A stretch of DNA of 64,000 nucleotides from Candidatus Lustribacter sp. (GCA_965277805.1 OZ255842.1:1312001-1376000); one strand, 5' to 3'; shown: positions 24,301-30,300, numbered from the stretch's first letter. Numbers: made by a program.

Positions 24301-27300
24301 GGGCGGTTCGCGGCTGACCGCTCGCACTCTTCTCGATCAAACCATCGCGGTTTCGTGGCGTTCGACGACCTGGCGCACGATCTCCGCGTTCGGAACGCCA
24401 TCCGGCGCGACGACATCGAACGACAGCAACTCGCCGAACCGGTTCTGCGTGGCGTCGCGGACCAGGCCGATCGGTTCACGACCGGCCTTCAAGTCGTCGA
24501 TCGCTTTCAGCATCAAACGCCGAGCGGCGGCGATCGCGATGTCGCTCGTGGCGAGATGTTCCTTGGTGCGATTTTGGATGCGGCCGGGCGTTTCGGTTGC
24601 AAACGCGTCGTGCGTGTTGAAGTTAGTGCCCATCCCGGTGAAGTTTTCGTTCATCTTCGTGCGGTCTTGCATGAAGCGATTCGCTTGCGAGCGCGTGATG
24701 TGGTACTCATCGGAATACTCGCCCGGTTTGCGGAGGTGGTTGGGCAGACGGTGATCGTCGCTCAACGGTTGATCGCGGCGGACGAAGAAATTCCAGCGCC
24801 AGTGCGTTTGGTCGTCGATCGGCACGTGGAAGTGTCCGATTTGCCCGTCGCCGCCTTGCGGGCCCGCGATGACGGAGAAGTTCGGCATCCCGAAGTAGGT
24901 CACGCGCAAGTACTTGCGTCCCAGGCCCGCCGTGCGGTTCTGAAAGATGCGCACGCCGAACGCGGTGTCTTCCACTTCCAGGCGCGCGGGTTCGGCCGGA
25001 TTGATGTCGGCGAGCACCACGTCATCTTTCGCCATGCCCACCACGCGCAGCGCGCCGAAATTGAGTCCGGGACGACGGTTGGGATCGAATGATTTGTGCA
25101 AGAACCCCACGTGCGAGGGATCGTAGTTGCCCTCGTTCGCTTGCAAGTAGTTGCAGTCGATGAAGAGCTTGTGCACGTGGATGTTCGGTTCGGGATACGT
25201 GAAAAAATCGTAGTTCGGAAATACGGGCGGCTCGCCCGGGCCCATGTAGCAGAAGAACGCACCGGCACGTTCGACGACCGGATAGGATGTCTGGCGAATT
25301 TTGTCTTTGAACGTGCTCTCTTTCGGCTCTGCCGGCTGTTCGAGACATTTCCCGGTGACGTCGTAGAGCCAGCCGTGATAGAGACAACGCAGCCCGCCGT
25401 CTTCGAGCCGGCCGAACGAGAGATCGGTGCCGCGGTGACAGCAATGACGATCGAGCAAGCCGACGCGATGCTGCTGATCGCGGAAGAGCACGAGCTCTTC
25501 GCCGAGGATATCGACCGGCACCGGTGCGCCGCCGGCCGGCAATTCGCTTGAAAGCGCGATCGGCTGCCAGTACCGGCGCAAGAGTTCGCCGCCGGCGGTT
25601 CCCGGGTTGGTGCGCGTGAGCGCGTCGTTCTGTTCCTGCGTCAACATCGCTGCGATCCTCCGGCGGCTACGGGTAACGTGCTTATTGTTGCATGATTGAA
25701 CGACCTTCGCTGCGATCACGCCGGCGCCGGATGCGCGGCTAACCACTGCCGTTCGGCCGTCGCTAAGGCTTGGGCGGCGGAAAGCCCGAGCGTGCGGGCG
25801 AGCGCGTAGGTGGTGCGGAGGGTACCCGATGATGCGACCAGCGCGAGCGTGCCGTTGCTGCCGTAGCGCGTCCAGGTCGCCTGCGCGACGGCTGCCGGCG
25901 CCCAACTCACGACGATCGTTTCGCGCGGAGTCCAGGCCATGAATGCCGGACTCGTCGTCACCGTTGCTGTTGCGGGAGCCTGAAGCGCCGATAGCGTGAC
26001 CGCACGCTGATCCGGTGCGGTCCCTTCGAAGCTCACGCGTTCGTCGACGATGAGTCGCGTCGCGCCGGCGGCGAGCCGCACGGTTTTCTCGAAGCGCGCA
26101 CCGCCGCCGAGGTCCGGCGCGTCGTAGGTGAAGCGTACGACGGCTTCCGCGCCCGTGGCGCGCACGATCTGCGTGCGATACGCGCGATTGAAGGTACCGG
26201 CGGGATAGGTGTGCGTGTACTTTGCGATGCGATCGGTCGTCGAAGGCGGCGGCGGCAGCAGCACGTCGTCGCGTAACGCACCGGTCGCGTTGACCGCGTT
26301 GTACGGCAACGCACTGCGCGCGGCGAAGACGATGAGCCGTGCGCCGCCGCCGGGAGCGAAGATCGCCACGATGCGATCGTTCGCGAGCGTCACCGTCCGG
26401 TCGCCGCTGCCGAATGCCGAACCCACGATGACACGCGCGACGCCGGGCACGACGGACGGCAGCGCCACGTGCACGGTTTGGCGCGCGTTGAGCGCCACCG
26501 AAGGTTCGTTCGCGCGCGCCGGGTTCGGACCGCGCATGGGCAGCGTGCCCGTTGCCGGCGGCGCGCTGCCGCCGAGCACGATCAGACGCGCGTCGCGCGG
26601 CGCCACGGTAAACGGCGGCACGTCGAAGGAACCGATGCCGGTCCACGTGACGCCGCCGAAGCGGCGGGGCGAGTTCGACCAGTTTGCCGCGACCCCGAAG
26701 GTGGCGTCGGGTCCGGCTAACACGGCGATGCCGCTGCCGAGTTGGTTCGGTACTTGCGCGCGAATCGCGATCCGCAGTTGCGCCAGGCTCCGTAGCCGCG
26801 CCGCGATTGCGGGCAGCGGCGGACGAACGAACGGCGGGACCACGATCGTGCGATATCGCCGCAGGCGCGCATCGCTCGAGAAGCGCAAGTCGACGACGTC
26901 GCAGGTGAGGCCGCGCGTGTTGCACGTGCGCAGCGCCGCCTTCAATTCGGCCGCGATCGCGCCGATGTCGTCGTTGGAAAGCGCCGCCGGATCGGACGCG
27001 CTGACTTCGTCGGCGATCGCGATCGTTGCGACCCGATGCGTCGCGGCCAGCAACGCACCGTATCGCCGGACCTCGTCACCGAAACGTTGGGTCGGTGCCC
27101 AGCGGGCCGGACGGCTGCGCAGCAACGCGTCGGGGTCGCGCGGAATCGCTGCGTCCCAACTGTAGAAGGCATTGGAGAACGGCGCTTCCCAGCCGAACGG
27201 CGCGAGCGTGTCTTGCAGCGGAAAGTCGACCACGCCGTGCACGCCCCAGCTCAGCATTTCGGCCAGTGCCAGCGTGGTGTTCGACGGATCGGCCGGACGC

Positions 27301-30300
27301 GGCAGCGGATCTTCGGGCGAGGCGAGCCAGCCGGCTTGAAACTCGCTCGACGCCGGGGGCACGCGTTCTTGCGTCGTCAACGTCGCCGTTGCGAAATCGA
27401 GTTCGACGCGATCGTGATCGCCGATCGAGTAGGCGTCGCTCTGGTACCAGTTGCCCATCGCCCACACGGGCGACGCCGCCGGCACTTTCATATCGTAGGT
27501 GTTGATGAACGTCGGCACGACGGGGCCTGTCACGCTGCGCACCTGCGTATCGAGCCAATGCAGATATGCTTGAAAATGCGGCGCGGGCCAGGTCTGATTG
27601 TCGATGTAGGCGCCCTGATCGTCGTCCAGCGCCACCGCGATCACGAGATCCGCGTACGGCACGAACTCCGCCAGCGCGTGATGCAGCCAGCGCGCCGCAT
27701 AATAGCGATGGGTTGCGTTGCGCATCCACTCTGCGGCTGCATCGTCGCTGTGCGCGTTTTGCAGCGTGGCGGTGGCGGGATAGCGCCCTTCGAGGATGTC
27801 GTGCAGCGGCATCCCGTACGCGGGCCGGCGCAGGAGCCACGCCGGATAGCCGCCGTTACGCCACTCGTTGCGAATCACGGGGCCCGGCCGCACGATCAGG
27901 TGAAAGTGCAGCTCGCGCGCCAACTGCAGCACCCGGCGCAGATTGCGGCGCGGGTTCGTATGGCCGTCGAAGTCGAATTTGCCGTCGGATGTTTCGTGCC
28001 AGTTCCACGGCACGTAGAGGTCGAGGGTGTTGGCGCCGGCGGCGCGCATGGCGACCATCGAGTCGCGCCAGCGTTCGGGCGGAATGCGTTCGTAGAAGAA
28101 CGCGCCGCCGAAAAAGAAGAACGGCTTGCCATCGACGAGCAGCTGCGGCGTGCCGTCGCGCTGCACGACGCGCGCGTGCGTGAACGTCGCCGCTTCGGCG
28201 CCGCGCGGTACGGTCGCGAACGCCAGAAGCAGCAGCGCGGCGGCGATCGCGAAGGGCCAGGTCGCTCGCACGCGCGCGCGGATCAGAAAGATCACTGCGC
28301 CCGCGGCCAGCGTCGCGGTGCCGAAGGCCATCGCGATTAGCCCCGAGCTCCAGAAGAGAAAGAACCAGGCGGCGAGCGCGACGATGACCGGCAACGGGTA
28401 GAGCGGCAGACGATATGGCGCCGGCTCGGCGCGCATGCGCAGCACCATAACCGCGAGGTTCCCGCCGACGCCCTGTACCAGCACGAGCCCGGCCGTGAGC
28501 GCGTTGATCACCGCGTCCAGCGGAAAGAGCGTGGCCGGCAACGCCAAGAGCCCCAGCGCGAGCAGCGAGATGTGCGGAAAGCGTTTCGTCGCGTGCAGCC
28601 GCGCGAAGGGCGCCAGGAAATCGCCGTCGCAGGCGGCGGCGTACGGCACGCGCGAGGCGCCGAGCAAACCGCCGTATACTGAAGCAAAGCAGGTGACGAG
28701 GATCGTTACCGTGATGACGACGGCGGCCGCATGTCCGGCAGTTCGCTCCACAGCTTGCGAGGCGACGAAGGTCGAGTGTGCGACCTCGCTGAGCGAGAGC
28801 GCGGAGAAGACGCCGAGGTTCAGCGCGACATAGGCCACTCCGGTGATGAGGATCGAGATGACGACGGCGAGCGGAATCGTGCGGACCGGCGCGATGACTT
28901 CGTCGCCGATTTGCGGCACGCTCTGGTATCCGGCATAGTCGTAGAGGGTGTAGACCATCGCGGCACCGAGCGCAACGACGTTCAGACCGCGCAGCGAAAA
29001 GGCCGGCGCGAGCAGCGCTCCCACCGGTTGCGTGGGGTGGAAGAACCCGCACGCGGCGATTGCAACCAACGTGAGTACGGCGATCGCGCTGAGCGCGAGC
29101 GCGGTGCGGGCGATGTGCGGAATCTTCTGGTAAAGCGCCCAGAGCGTGACGACGCCGACGCCGAGCGCGACGGCGTGCGCGGCGATGGGCTGGGCCAACA
29201 CGGGAACGAGATAGGCCGCGTACTGCGCGAAGCCGATGTATCCGCTCGCGATCGACAGCGGCAGCGCGAAGAGGTACTGCCAGACGAATATGAAGGCGAC
29301 GATGCGTCCCGGTCCGTGCGCGCCGAAGGCTTCGCGCAGATAGGCGTAGGTGCCGCCGCTACGCGGAAAGCGCGACGCGAGCTCGGCATAGCACAAGCCG
29401 TCGCACAGCGCCACGAGGGCGCCGGCGATCCACGGCCAGATCGTGATCGAGCCGTGCATCGCCGCGACGACGAGCGGGATCGTGATCAGCGGTCCCGCGC
29501 CGACGATCGTCGCGACGTTGATCGCGACGGCGCTGCGCAGCCCGACCCCGCGGATCAAGCGGTCAATCCGAACACGTCACGATAGAATTGCAGCTCGCGC
29601 TCGAGCACCCGTACGATCGTCTCGGCCTTACGGAAGCCGTGGCCTTCGCCTTCGAACGCTTCGTAGACGACCGGCACGTTGCGCGCGATCAACGCGTCGC
29701 GCATCGCGGTCGCTTGATTGGGCGGCACGACGCGATCGTCCAGGCCCTGGAAGAGCAGCACCGGCACGTCGATCGTCGCCACGTGGTTCACCGGGGAGCG
29801 CTCGCGATAGCGCTCGAGCGTTTGCGGCAACGGGCCGACCAACCCGTCGGTGTAACGCGCTTCGAACTTGTGCGTGTCGGCGGCCAGCGCTTCGAGCTCC
29901 ATCACGCCGTACAGGCTGACCGCGGCCGCGAAGACGTCCGATGTGGCGACGGCGAGCAGCGCGGTCATGCCGCTGGCGCTGCCGCCGCGAATCGCGATTT
30001 GCGCGGGATTACAGCGGCCGCTCTCTGCCAGCGAGCGTGCCACGTTGATGCAGTCGCGGACGTCGATCTCGCCCCATGCGCCGGCGAGCCGTCCGCGGTA
30101 GGTGCGTCCGAAGCCCGAGGAGCCGCGGTAATTGACGTGCGCGACCGCAAAGCCGCGCGAGGTGTAAAATTGAATCCCAATGTTGAACGCGTTGGTGTGC
30201 ATCGAGGTCGGCCCGCCGTGGCTCATCACGATCAGCGGGGGCCGCTCGCCCGCCGGACCTGCGTAGCGCGCGTTTCGTGGCGGATAGAAGAACGCGTGCA

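Follow-up and report, generated by a model that had tools for sequence, protein, structure and literature searches.

In the SLC3-SLC7 transporters an SLC7 light chain is joined by a disulfide, from a cysteine in its TM3-TM4 loop, to an SLC3 heavy chain, a separate polypeptide with a catalytically dead, GH13-like domain of the glycosidase (TIM-barrel) fold, which stands outside the membrane after one extra helix. The GlmA-type exo-beta-D-glucosaminidase of the archaeal chitin pathway is a cytoplasmic enzyme. Cleavage at an internal signal peptide is documented in the Bradyrhizobium FbcH cytochrome b-c1 precursor and in viral polyproteins cut by the host signal peptidase; in these, one frame encodes a polytopic membrane protein, an internal signal peptide and an exported domain. 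For GlmA, PMC6566704 gives Asp178 as the residue binding the C2 amine, Glu179 as the acid/base and Glu103 as a substrate-binding residue; it reports that the D178N mutant is inactive and that the Asp-Glu motif marks GlcN specificity, and it describes the enzyme as devoid of the SEF..GW motif.

The gene we describe lies in a 64-kb stretch of DNA, here called the window, and specifies in a single frame, from N- to C-terminus, a LAT/APC permease of 12 helices, one further hydrophobic segment (the 13th) and a GH35-like enzyme of 824 residues (Table 1). The open reading frame, Pfam matches, alignments and AF2 models all bear out the fusion of the two halves in one 1280-residue chain, which the genome-wide survey's note had proposed, and the gene is not an artefact of assembly or gene calling. 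Its TTG start is supported because the homologues begin at the same M/L/V-I-R-G-V-G-L-R-S. The overlap with the upstream S9 peptidase gene is 4 nt (TTGA), and this neighbour is common to the same genus only. The host is a soil or peat bacterium of the phylum Eremiobacterota/Vulcanimicrobiota, and a secretin gene is present in the window; according to PMC9758169, the envelope of the phylum's only cultured member is Gram-negative and includes an outer membrane.

Table 1. Features of the fused gene and its upstream neighbour, in window coordinates.
Feature	Position	Strand	Basis or remark
Whole fused gene	25716..29558	-	1280-aa precursor, 136.8 kDa; TTG start; stop codon 25716-25718
Upstream S9 (prolyl-oligopeptidase family) peptidase gene	29555..31594	-	4-nt overlap of its stop with the fused gene's start
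LAT/APC-type permease, residues 1-430, 12 TM helices	28269..29558	-	PF13520, xCT/LAT1 alignment, hydropathy, AF2 helices
Internal signal-peptide-like segment (13th helix), residues 427-456	28191..28280	-	Hydropathy, column counts; pLDDT 45-55
Predicted signal peptidase I site, A454-E-A456 / A457-T-F459	28182..28199	-	Column counts, 63 fused homologues
GH35-like (beta/alpha)8 catalytic domain, residues 457 to ~840	27039..28190	-	Pfam, GlmA alignments, AF2, Foldseek
R563-N-E565-W-R-N-G-G	27849..27872	-	Gap-free alignment to GlmA; invariant in 42/42 close rows
D645-D646-D647, end of strand beta4	27618..27626	-	Profile alignment to four GlmA-type structures; AF2 strand positions; invariance
S738-E739-F-Q-A-G-W744, nucleophile motif on strand beta7	27327..27347	-	Sub-profile alignment, AF2 strand order, invariance
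Alpha/beta domain, residues 841-945	26724..27038	-	Profile alignment to GlmA domain II
C-terminal beta-sandwich domains and final helix, residues 946-1280	25719..26723	-	AF2 secondary structure

The N-terminal half matches AA_permease_2 (PF13520) at residues 6-412 (E 1.8e-29), and its relatives of solved structure, as detected by sequence, are xCT, LAT1, y+LAT, b0,+AT and BasC. Among these the SLC7 light chains are the closest: residues 3-406 align to xCT (E 1.2e-29) and LAT1 (5.9e-26), followed by BasC (PDB 6f2g; 5.9e-18) and AdiC (3.5e-16), the last two, a bacterial standalone LAT homologue and an AdiC-type APC antiporter, having the same fold and motifs. Counterparts of three signature motifs are aligned in LAT1 and xCT and invariant in the 63 fused homologues: the G-x-G of TM1 (V-G20-A-G22); the (S)GG-x-Y-x-Y motif after TM2 (S-G-G-T-Y-A-Y); and the aromatic-x-x-G-aromatic motif of TM6 (Y206-D207-Y208-A-G210-Y211). 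The identification as a LAT/SLC7-type permease, which the survey's note had made, thus stands on Pfam and the xCT/LAT1 alignment; the assignment is best placed at the superfamily or family level only, as the chain scores 112 bits with the NCBIfam LAT subfamily model TIGR00911 (cut-off 701.8) and 117.2 bits with TIGR00909 (cut-off 556.8). Hydropathy and K/R counts delineate the 12 helices and a 13th (432-450), with RARVR on the cytoplasmic side, and all 12+1 segments fit the positive-inside rule. Bacterial standalone LAT homologues, unlike this protein, have neither a 13th helix nor a C-terminal enzyme.

The joint itself consists of the n-region RARVR, W434-P-F, an uncharged stretch of 18 residues and the c-region P451-R-G-A454-E-A456. 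Across the 63 fused homologues the basic n-region is recurrent (R427 in 51, R429 in 53 and R432 in 53), alanine occupies -3 in 56 and -1 in 52, and proline occupies -6 in 55; position -2 is variable, its commonest residue being found in only 12, and +1 is A457, so there is no proline at that place. The segment therefore combines the n-region, h-region, small residues at -1 and -3 and helix breaker near -6 that typify a Sec signal peptide. Confident folding also begins at the predicted cleavage site, with pLDDT 56 for residues 1-10 of the modelled GH part and 94 for residues 11-20. Since no feature of a cleavable Sec signal peptide is missing from the joint, we read the gene as a two-product precursor, comprising a permease, an internal signal peptide and a released periplasmic glycosidase, and give this reading as a whole a probability of about 0.5. 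The balance for the cleavage step itself tips slightly in its favour, with signal peptidase I most likely to cut after A454-E-A456. Hydropathy, K/R counts and the column counts agree with the survey's view of the joint as a signal peptide, the nature of which would place the enzyme in the periplasm; the topology evident at the sequence level is a permease followed by an enzyme exported across the inner membrane. FbcH and the viral precursors offer a parallel to such an arrangement, although cleavage is only predicted here and a transporter is paired with a hydrolase rather than one subunit of a complex with another.

The same segment could instead persist as a permanent anchor, with the glycosidase tethered a few residues above the membrane beside the permease and any released sugar or amino compound passed straight to the transporter, making a single-chain transporter with an ectodomain. 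The h-region of a signal peptide usually has 7-15 residues; the uncharged stretch measures 15-21 residues in the homologues (mode 17), which is long as signal peptides go and makes it a borderline case for a signal anchor, and it could span the membrane. W434-P-F at the start of the helix is kept in 58-62 of the 63 fused rows, and the persistence of the fusion in about three quarters of the genomes of the family suggests a benefit from the linkage. We nevertheless consider a permanent anchor rather unlikely, as the small residues at -3 and -1, the variable -2 and the proline at -6 are maintained across homologues 48-90% identical to the window's protein, a conserved cleavage-site pattern with no obvious use in such an anchor. 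Between the helix and the folded domain there are only ~6-10 residues; in the full-length AF2 model, whose whole-chain pTM is only 0.64, pLDDT falls to 45-55 over the 13th helix and the linker; and repeated splitting into unlinked genes has been tolerated.

The two-product reading assigns the remainder of the chain to a secreted enzyme. Glyco_hydro_35 (PF01301) matches residues 472-579 (E 2.1e-32; 113.4 bits against a gathering score of 27), the match spanning only profile positions 1-104 of 319, and by sequence the GlmA exo-beta-D-glucosaminidases match residues 472-577 (1.4e-33 over ~106 residues). The GH35 nature of the whole C-terminal part, beyond these first 110 or so aligned residues, was a claim of the survey's note that the structural model upholds: AF2 gives residues 446-1280 a pLDDT of 95.3 and a pTM of 0.94, and the top Foldseek matches are all GH35 (E 1e-25 to 1e-15), the best being the archaeal exo-beta-D-glucosaminidases 8oug (1.3e-25) and 5gsm (6.2e-25). 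GlmA is hence the best match by both sequence and fold, with the same order of TIM barrel, alpha/beta and beta domains. The two nevertheless differ: the aligned GlmA chains have no signal peptide, whereas the enzyme here is predicted to be exported, and an extra beta domain is present; the score with the NCBIfam GlmA model (NF041127) is 112.8 bits, far below its equivalog cut-off of 1500. The mature enzyme has just two cysteines, C879 and C886 (window 26901-26924). Both lie in the alpha/beta domain and are invariant in 63/63 fused and 42/42 close rows, and they likely form a disulfide. A second group of structural matches is headed by the GH35 beta-1,2-glucosyltransferase IaSGT (PDB 7vkw; E 4.6e-22, TM 0.45/0.53), which shows, in PMC8861115, that this branch of GH35 has activities beyond beta-galactosidase; the same paper gives IaSGT Asn175-Glu176 and no signal peptide, in contrast to the Asp-Asp and predicted exported domain found here.

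Seven positions of the -1 subsite (Y515, E565, D646, D647, N686, E739 and Y799) are invariant in 63/63 fused rows and in 41-42 of the 42 close rows. Y515, E565 and D646 correspond to Tyr53, Glu103 and Asp178 of GlmA, and R563 stands where GlmA has Cys101 and human GLB1 has Cys127. The survey's note had ascribed both catalytic glutamates to the motifs around E565 and E739. The second holds as the nucleophile: the SEFQAGW sub-profile aligns to human GLB1, in the region around NSEFYTGW, and to GH35 enzymes of bacteria (a weak match, E 0.03-0.09, in which 7 of 9 hits are GH35), E739 falls within strand 292-296 of the GH-part model, and the motif resembles the SEF..GW of GH35 beta-galactosidases, which GlmA does not share. 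The first has to be reassigned, as E565 is the counterpart of the substrate-binding Glu103 in G-E103-W-R-N-G-G, and the acid/base site is Asp647. D645-D646-D647 aligns to D177-D178-E179 of GlmA, so that the clan GH-A acid/base glutamate at the end of beta4 is absent and an aspartate stands there in 42/42 close and 15/18 distant rows. We know of no precedent for aspartate at the acid/base position, and it could mean low or different activity. The other half of the Asp-Glu motif, the Asp178 equivalent D646, is invariant and hints at a 2-amino sugar substrate. We read the enzyme as a member of the GlmA-like branch of GH35, a retaining exo-beta-glycosidase that keeps E739 and D646 but has aspartate at the acid/base position; it may, on tentative grounds, remove a terminal 2-amino sugar from a glycan. 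In the window's own genome NagB was not found above its cut-off (48.2 against 236.9 bits), nor were GH46 or GH18, so the ordinary chitin or chitosan route is not evident.

The replaced acid/base glutamate also leaves room for an inactive GH35-like part serving the permease as chaperone, stabiliser or lectin, in the manner of 4F2hc and rBAT, and the layout of an internal LAT C-terminus, one helix and an ectodomain equals that of a light chain plus a type II heavy chain. We regard this as very improbable, given that the nucleophile is invariant, as are the seven positions of the -1 subsite, that 12-15 of 18 distant secreted relatives, which are never fused, also have the DDD triad, and that many genomes encode the domain by itself as a secreted protein. 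The permease has cysteines at residues 52, 56, 170, 290 and 310 and none in the TM3-TM4 loop (105-119). The parallel with SLC3-SLC7 pairs drawn in the survey's note is therefore topological only: it survives as the extra helix and outer glycosidase fold, and fails in that the permease has no loop cysteine and the domain here belongs to another glycosidase family, has conserved catalytic residues, is peptide-linked through a cleavable-looking segment, and is often encoded apart from the permease.

How often the halves travel together was assessed in 113 genomes sampled from the host's own family and in 87 that represent 20 further families of its phylum. The GH part was found in 107/113 of the former and 0/87 of the latter; a permease orthologue is present in 105/113, and at the thresholds used both occur once per genome. 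Counting as fused a permease in an open frame of at least 900 aa, the fused form accounts for 78 of the 106 permease-holding genomes (about three quarters) and a short frame for 28; among 80 named MAG loci, 44 have the in-frame fusion. The conserved architecture is likewise recovered in 78 of the best 120 homologue clusters, the survey's figure of 88/120 having come from another query. The GH35-only relatives, whose N-terminal signal peptides are of the ordinary kind and whose mature part likewise starts with F-x-H-A, were earlier taken simply to carry the same signal peptide. They derive instead from the fused gene by in-frame deletion of the permease body in situ and still begin with the first residues of the permease, and a same-genus comparison shows a clean loss of ~1.41-1.43 kb with collinear flanks. 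In 5/5 GH35-only genomes checked, one standalone permease is found at a distant locus, the split genes lying far apart; such orthologues, found in the same family and a sister family, stop a few residues past the R-x-W-P-F motif. Moreover, one genus (g23; 3 genomes) has the enzyme but no permease, and another (g28; 3 genomes) as well as genome G115 have the permease but no enzyme. The coupling is thus not obligatory, and the halves work apart.

This pattern bears on whether the halves share a function at all, for the permease might be a mere co-translational targeting leader for an unrelated periplasmic enzyme, or the fusion might be a neutral accident that became fixed in the ancestor of the family, with unrelated substrates. 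That each half occurs alone in some genera, that split genes are not adjacent, and that no sugar-catabolic genes were found among the conserved neighbours, which comprise a methyltransferase-like gene and one for an M20 peptidase, would suit such a view. It is improbable, however, as both parts are near-universal across the family and each was found once per genome at the thresholds used, and the fusion persists across genera at only 45-65% protein identity; fusions kept across such diverged genera are usually functional. The invariant Asp207 of permease TM6 and Asp646 of the enzyme would both, in addition, fit a cationic ligand. The survey's interpretation as a whole is partly supported.

In the two-product reading, the 12-helix permease, with both termini cytoplasmic, would insert co-translationally, and residues 427-456 would act as an internal Sec-type signal peptide threading the 824-residue enzyme across the inner membrane; signal peptidase I would then leave two products, a permease of 47 kDa that retains the 13th helix and a glycosidase of 89 kDa that is free in the periplasm and has one stabilising disulfide. 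The fusion would thereby give 1:1 synthesis and co-targeting of both products, and the permease may, more doubtfully still than the enzyme's proposed specificity, take up the amine-bearing product that the enzyme sets free, or else an amino acid that comes from the same substrate.

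The gene that joins the permease to the GH35-like enzyme is an unbroken open reading frame of 1280 codons with a TTG start, which is sound because the homologues begin at the same position with M/L/V-I-R-G-V-G-L-R-S; this start overlaps the stop of the upstream S9-family peptidase gene by four bases. In Pfam the product matches AA_permease_2 at residues 6-412 (E 1.8e-29) and Glyco_hydro_35 at residues 472-579 (E 2.1e-32), the latter over profile positions 1-104 of 319 only. The amino-acid transporter subfamilies of NCBIfam are matched below threshold, and the enzyme part reaches 112.8 bits against the equivalog for GlmA, the exo-beta-D-glucosaminidase of archaea, for which the cut-off is 1500. 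The solved proteins closest in sequence to the permease part are xCT (1.2e-29), LAT1, y+LAT1, b0,+AT and the bacterial BasC and AdiC; those closest to residues 472-577 are four archaeal GlmA-type structures and the GH35 glucosyltransferase IaSGT. All factual statements of the genome-wide survey's note on the frame, the Pfam domains and the solved relatives of both parts were reproduced. The gene is a real, conserved and lineage-defining fusion of two known families, and the architecture joining these two well-known families is undescribed: a full-text literature search (supplements aside) found no paper on a permease-GH35 fusion or on GH35 in Eremiobacterota. Source annotations call the gene 'amino acid transporter' only.

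Named relatives come from Candidatus Elarobacter, Velthaea, Lustribacter and other metagenome-assembled genomes (MAGs) of Vulcanimicrobiota (= Eremiobacterota = WPS-2), with isolate names pointing to bog, palsa, fen and Antarctic-soil samples. A sample of 200 genomes was drawn from the phylum, 113 of them belonging to the window's family, Vulcanimicrobiaceae, and 87 to 20 other families. The enzyme part (E <= 1e-30) turned up in 107 of the 113 and in none of the 87; the permease orthologue (E <= 1e-60) turned up in 105/113 family genomes and in three other families at 2/15, 3/16 and 1/1. These family counts include the unpublished genome G178, which has the fused form; without it they are 106/112 and 104/112. 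Of 120 homologue clusters, 78 are in the fused state, and truncated gene calls account for several of the remaining 42; fusion is also seen in 78/106 family genomes when scored as an open frame of >= 900 aa around the permease match, and in 18/30 loci. Among 80 named loci, 44 are fused in frame, 33 have no permease within 2 kb, two have too little flank and one has the permease in another frame. The permease is missing from genus g23, which has just the enzyme, and the enzyme from genus g28 and genome G115, which have just the permease. When the whole library was searched with HMMER, representative clusters numbered 152 at E <= 1e-30; at E <= 1e-3 there were 5170, a figure that reflects GH35 at large.

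Several loci depart from these states. In G164 (L062) a frameshift lies just within the enzyme part, in G073 (L063) the frame is interrupted, in G162 (L061) permease and enzyme are adjacent genes in different frames, and in G127 and G174 the enzyme matches are truncated; these broken or intermediate states may reflect sequencing errors or real decay. Seven loci (L078, L108, L111, L114, L122, L130 and L134), several of them fused, come from MAGs labelled Limnocylindria, Rhodospirillales, Alphaproteobacteria, Acidiferrales or Binatia; their 48-62% identity is the range within the Eremiobacterota family, and mis-binning, mislabelling or transfer could each account for them.

The permease part aligns with xCT and LAT1 from TM1 through TM11/12 and has in common with them the TM1 G-x-G, the S-G-G-x-Y-x-Y and the TM6 motifs. 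The survey's note had been reminded of the pairing of SLC7 transporters with SLC3 heavy chains in eukaryotes. This likeness holds for topology and fold class and goes no further. The permease scores far under the curated LAT subfamily cut-off of NCBIfam and lacks the loop cysteine of the SLC7 light chains. Its Asp207, in the unwound part of TM6, is invariant, where LAT1 and xCT have Ala; it may suit a cationic ligand. The window's genome has no second close permease, the next best being 25% identical.

Hydropathy predicts 12 helices with K/R-rich cytoplasmic loops, followed by R-A-R-V-R and a 13th hydrophobic segment at the joint. In 63 aligned fused homologues (alignment A2) the n-region columns R427 (51), A428 (59), R429 (53) and R432 (53) are followed by W434 (58), P435 (62) and F436 (58), then by an uncharged stretch of 15-21 residues (mode 17). 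The c-region has P451 (55), A454 at -3 (56) and A456 at -1 (52), with the intervening -2 position variable (commonest residue in 12/63), and the mature part would start with A457 and T458, then F459 (57), H461 (59) and A462 (55). This conserved-variable-conserved pattern, with a Pro six residues upstream, matches the signature of a predicted signal peptidase I site. The alternative that the joint remains uncleaved is a real doubt, since the uncharged stretch is longer than most signal peptides. What further favours cleavage is that confident folding of the enzyme in the AF2 models starts at the predicted site, that confidence in the model of residues 1-1200 (pLDDT 85.5, pTM 0.64) is lowest in the 13th helix and the linker (pLDDT 45-55), and that non-fused relatives have ordinary N-terminal signal peptides leading to the same mature start. 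A polyprotein mechanism, in which a precursor with a predicted mass of 136.8 kDa is split at an internal signal peptide into a permease of 47.4 kDa and an enzyme of 89.4 kDa, is probable. The nearest mechanistic precedent would be the Bradyrhizobium cytochrome b-c1 precursor FbcH, where a single gene gives rise to a polytopic and an exported protein that are cut apart at an internal signal peptide.

No more than two cysteines, C879 and C886, occur in the mature part; both are invariant, which fits an oxidising compartment. 'Periplasm' is the right word for it, because the window encodes a secretin and the cultured member of the phylum is described with an inner membrane, a thin layer of peptidoglycan and an outer membrane that bears LPS (PMC9758169). 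A Tat signal at the joint was rejected, a second Arg occurring at column 430 in only 25/63 rows, as was a lipoprotein reading of the enzyme, no Cys being listed at +1. A-x-A occurs near the joint in 86/90 fused and 82/105 non-fused proteins, a raw count without chance control in Ala-rich proteins; the cleavage reading is based on the column pattern above in its place.

A model of residues 446-1280 (mean pLDDT 95.3, pTM 0.94) combines a (beta/alpha)8 barrel with an alpha/beta domain and with beta-sandwich domains. In Foldseek searches against the PDB, GlmA enzymes rank first (8oug 1.3e-25, 5gsm 6.2e-25, 6jow, 5gsl), followed by IaSGT (4.6e-22, TM 0.45/0.53) and then GH35 and GH42 beta-galactosidases, a ranking by which the enzyme part past its first 110 residues is a genuine, divergent GH35-type enzyme. 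The survey's note had taken the NEW.NGG motif for a catalytic glutamate motif. This assignment is not supported: in a gap-free alignment R563-N-E565-W-R-N-G-G falls on I-C101-G-E103-W-R-N-G-G of GlmA, and E565 corresponds to Glu103, given as a substrate-binding residue in a review of GlmA (PMC6566704). The same review names Glu179 as acid/base and Glu347 as nucleophile, and describes Asp178, just before the acid/base, as binding the C2 amine of glucosamine, with D178N inactive (PMC6566704). For each of the four GlmA-type structures, a profile from 60 aligned sequences (A1) places the family's L-D-D-D-Q on I-D177-D178-E179-P. Scores for these stretches are low (3.8-9.5 bits), yet the stretches agree with one another and fall where strand beta4 of the model ends. 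Together these point to Asp647, within the triad D645-D646-D647, as the predicted acid/base position. The triad is invariant in 63/63 fused homologues and 42/42 close rows, and kept in 12-15 of 18 distant, non-fused relatives.

A sub-profile from 33 sequences (A3) aligns S-E739-F-Q-A-G-W with the N-S-E-F-Y-T-G-W region of human GLB1 and bacterial GH35 enzymes; the match is weak (E 0.03-0.09), with GH35 beta-galactosidases making up 7/9 matches, and E739 lies at the end of strand beta7 in the model. Y515, E565, N686, E739 and Y799 are likewise invariant in the 63 fused rows and fit the -1 subsite residues listed for GlmA and IaSGT in PMC8861115, N686 and Y799 having been matched by strand order and motif rather than superposition. 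Arg563 is invariant in this lineage only (42/42 close rows), distant rows having L, A, C or F. The active site is atypical. We read the protein as a putative retaining exo-glycosidase in which one Asp, at the C2 position, would bind a cation and another would, unusually, act as acid/base; the former suggests that its specificity is probably for a 2-amino sugar. A single GH35 gene is present in the window's genome. A chitin/chitosan route was considered and is not evident, because a search of this genome (95% complete) for three families found no NagB above cut-off, no GH46 and no GH18.

A FastTree built on 142 rows of the catalytic domain intersperses fused with non-fused forms; its well-supported branches force >= 15 state changes, and eight distant, never-fused rows form a separate clade. 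The secreted, never-fused GH35-like proteins P0158-P0206 (1080-1360 aa), themselves a separate clade, are 25-34% identical to the window's enzyme part; they mostly keep the DDD triad and nucleophile, lack Arg563 and the Cys pair, and have long extra C-terminal regions.

The GH35-only forms had been described in the survey's note as carrying the same signal peptide. They do have an N-terminal signal peptide and the same mature start; many, however, retain the N-terminus of the permease, as in-frame deletion forms would. They often start M-x-R-[SG]-x-G-L-R-[SAV], with G-x-R within the first 14 residues in 36/105, and P0077, P0096 and P0224 start M-x-R-G-V-G-L-R-S, which is the permease N-terminus and is found too in standalone permeases of another family. 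Within one genus, the upstream and downstream flanks of the fused locus L037 are collinear with the enzyme-only loci L045 and L048, in which ~1.41-1.43 kb (the permease body) is replaced by 115-138 bp, with the gene start at an unchanged distance from the upstream gene. The downstream neighbours of enzyme-only genes, a methyltransferase-like gene and an M20 peptidase, are also retained. These relics, collinear flanks and kept distances and neighbours show that the enzyme-only forms are in-situ, in-frame deletions of a fused ancestor.

In each of five enzyme-only genomes a single standalone permease orthologue lies at a distant site. A rooted quick tree groups the standalone permeases from three genera and a sister family into one clade (SH-aLRT 100) and sets this clade apart from the fused permeases that belong to the same genus, g2; there is also a second clade of standalone forms. 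It looks as if a standalone lineage displaced the fused permease and deletion followed. This shows that the two halves can work as separate proteins, which would be expected of a precursor that is normally cut. As a relic of fusion, the 'W-P-F' with which standalone permeases end was considered and set aside as ambiguous, since standalone permeases of the enzyme-free sister family end likewise.

Features around the fused gene in the window
Feature	Coordinates	Strand	Remark
M20 peptidase gene	15780-16949	+	conserved downstream neighbour
class I SAM-methyltransferase-like gene, 482 aa, lineage-specific	18243-19691	-	conserved downstream neighbour
low-GC stretch	20100-25700		GC 0.55-0.62 versus about 0.68
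GIY-YIG homing-endonuclease-like ORF	23070-23738	-	inside low-GC stretch
tRNA-Leu(CAA)	24209-24291	-	inside low-GC stretch
permease-GH35 fused gene	25716-29558	-	
S9 peptidase gene	29555-31594	-	upstream; TTGA overlap, translationally coupled to fused gene
two-domain M16 peptidase gene	about 31700-34179	+	divergent, next to S9 peptidase gene
NUDIX gene	34176-34736	-	next to S9/M16 block
cytochrome c gene	34748-35212	+	
molybdopterin-binding (MoCoBD) oxidoreductase subunit genes, two adjacent	35422-40008	+	after cytochrome c gene
type II/III secretin gene	42251-43396	-	further on in window

The S9 and M16 peptidases were rejected as functional context, the S9-M16-NUDIX block being common, among 20 loci compared, only to the same-genus genome G145. 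In many genera the methyltransferase-like and M20 peptidase genes are found downstream of the gene, be it fused or enzyme-only. The low-GC stretch separates the fused gene from the DUF805 and methyltransferase-like genes; because in relatives the latter comes directly after the enzyme gene or within about 1.8 kb, the stretch looks like an insertion beside the tRNA. Its remaining ORFs have no family matches, and PADLOC found in it only homing-endonuclease, UzuA and PDC-S14 models, on one ORF.

At roughly one chance in four, we suggest that a LAT-type transporter and a periplasmic glycosidase, made from one gene and split by signal peptidase, would work as a pair, the enzyme releasing and the transporter importing an amine-bearing sugar or sugar-amino compound, with a new GH35 activity (Asp acid/base, Arg in the -1 subsite) and the first bacterial SLC7-type transporter tied to a glycosidase-fold protein. 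If so, the SLC3-SLC7 partnership of eukaryotes would have in this pair an independent parallel or a clue to its origin. Cleaved or not, the GH35-like clade with an invariant DDD replacing the acid/base Glu is an uncharacterised enzyme type, and the LAT link gives a bacterial case to set beside the way in which SLC7 transporters gained glycosidase-fold partners. Natural variants, whether fused, split or deleted, are many and make up a ready-made evolutionary experiment on gene fusion and fission. An uncleaved joint would make the protein a natural enzyme-transporter chimera. A cleaved one would make it a rare bacterial polyprotein, in which the synthesis and export of a soluble enzyme are coupled to a polytopic transporter, and this coupling would extend through an entire family of a soil and peat phylum that is abundant and barely cultured.
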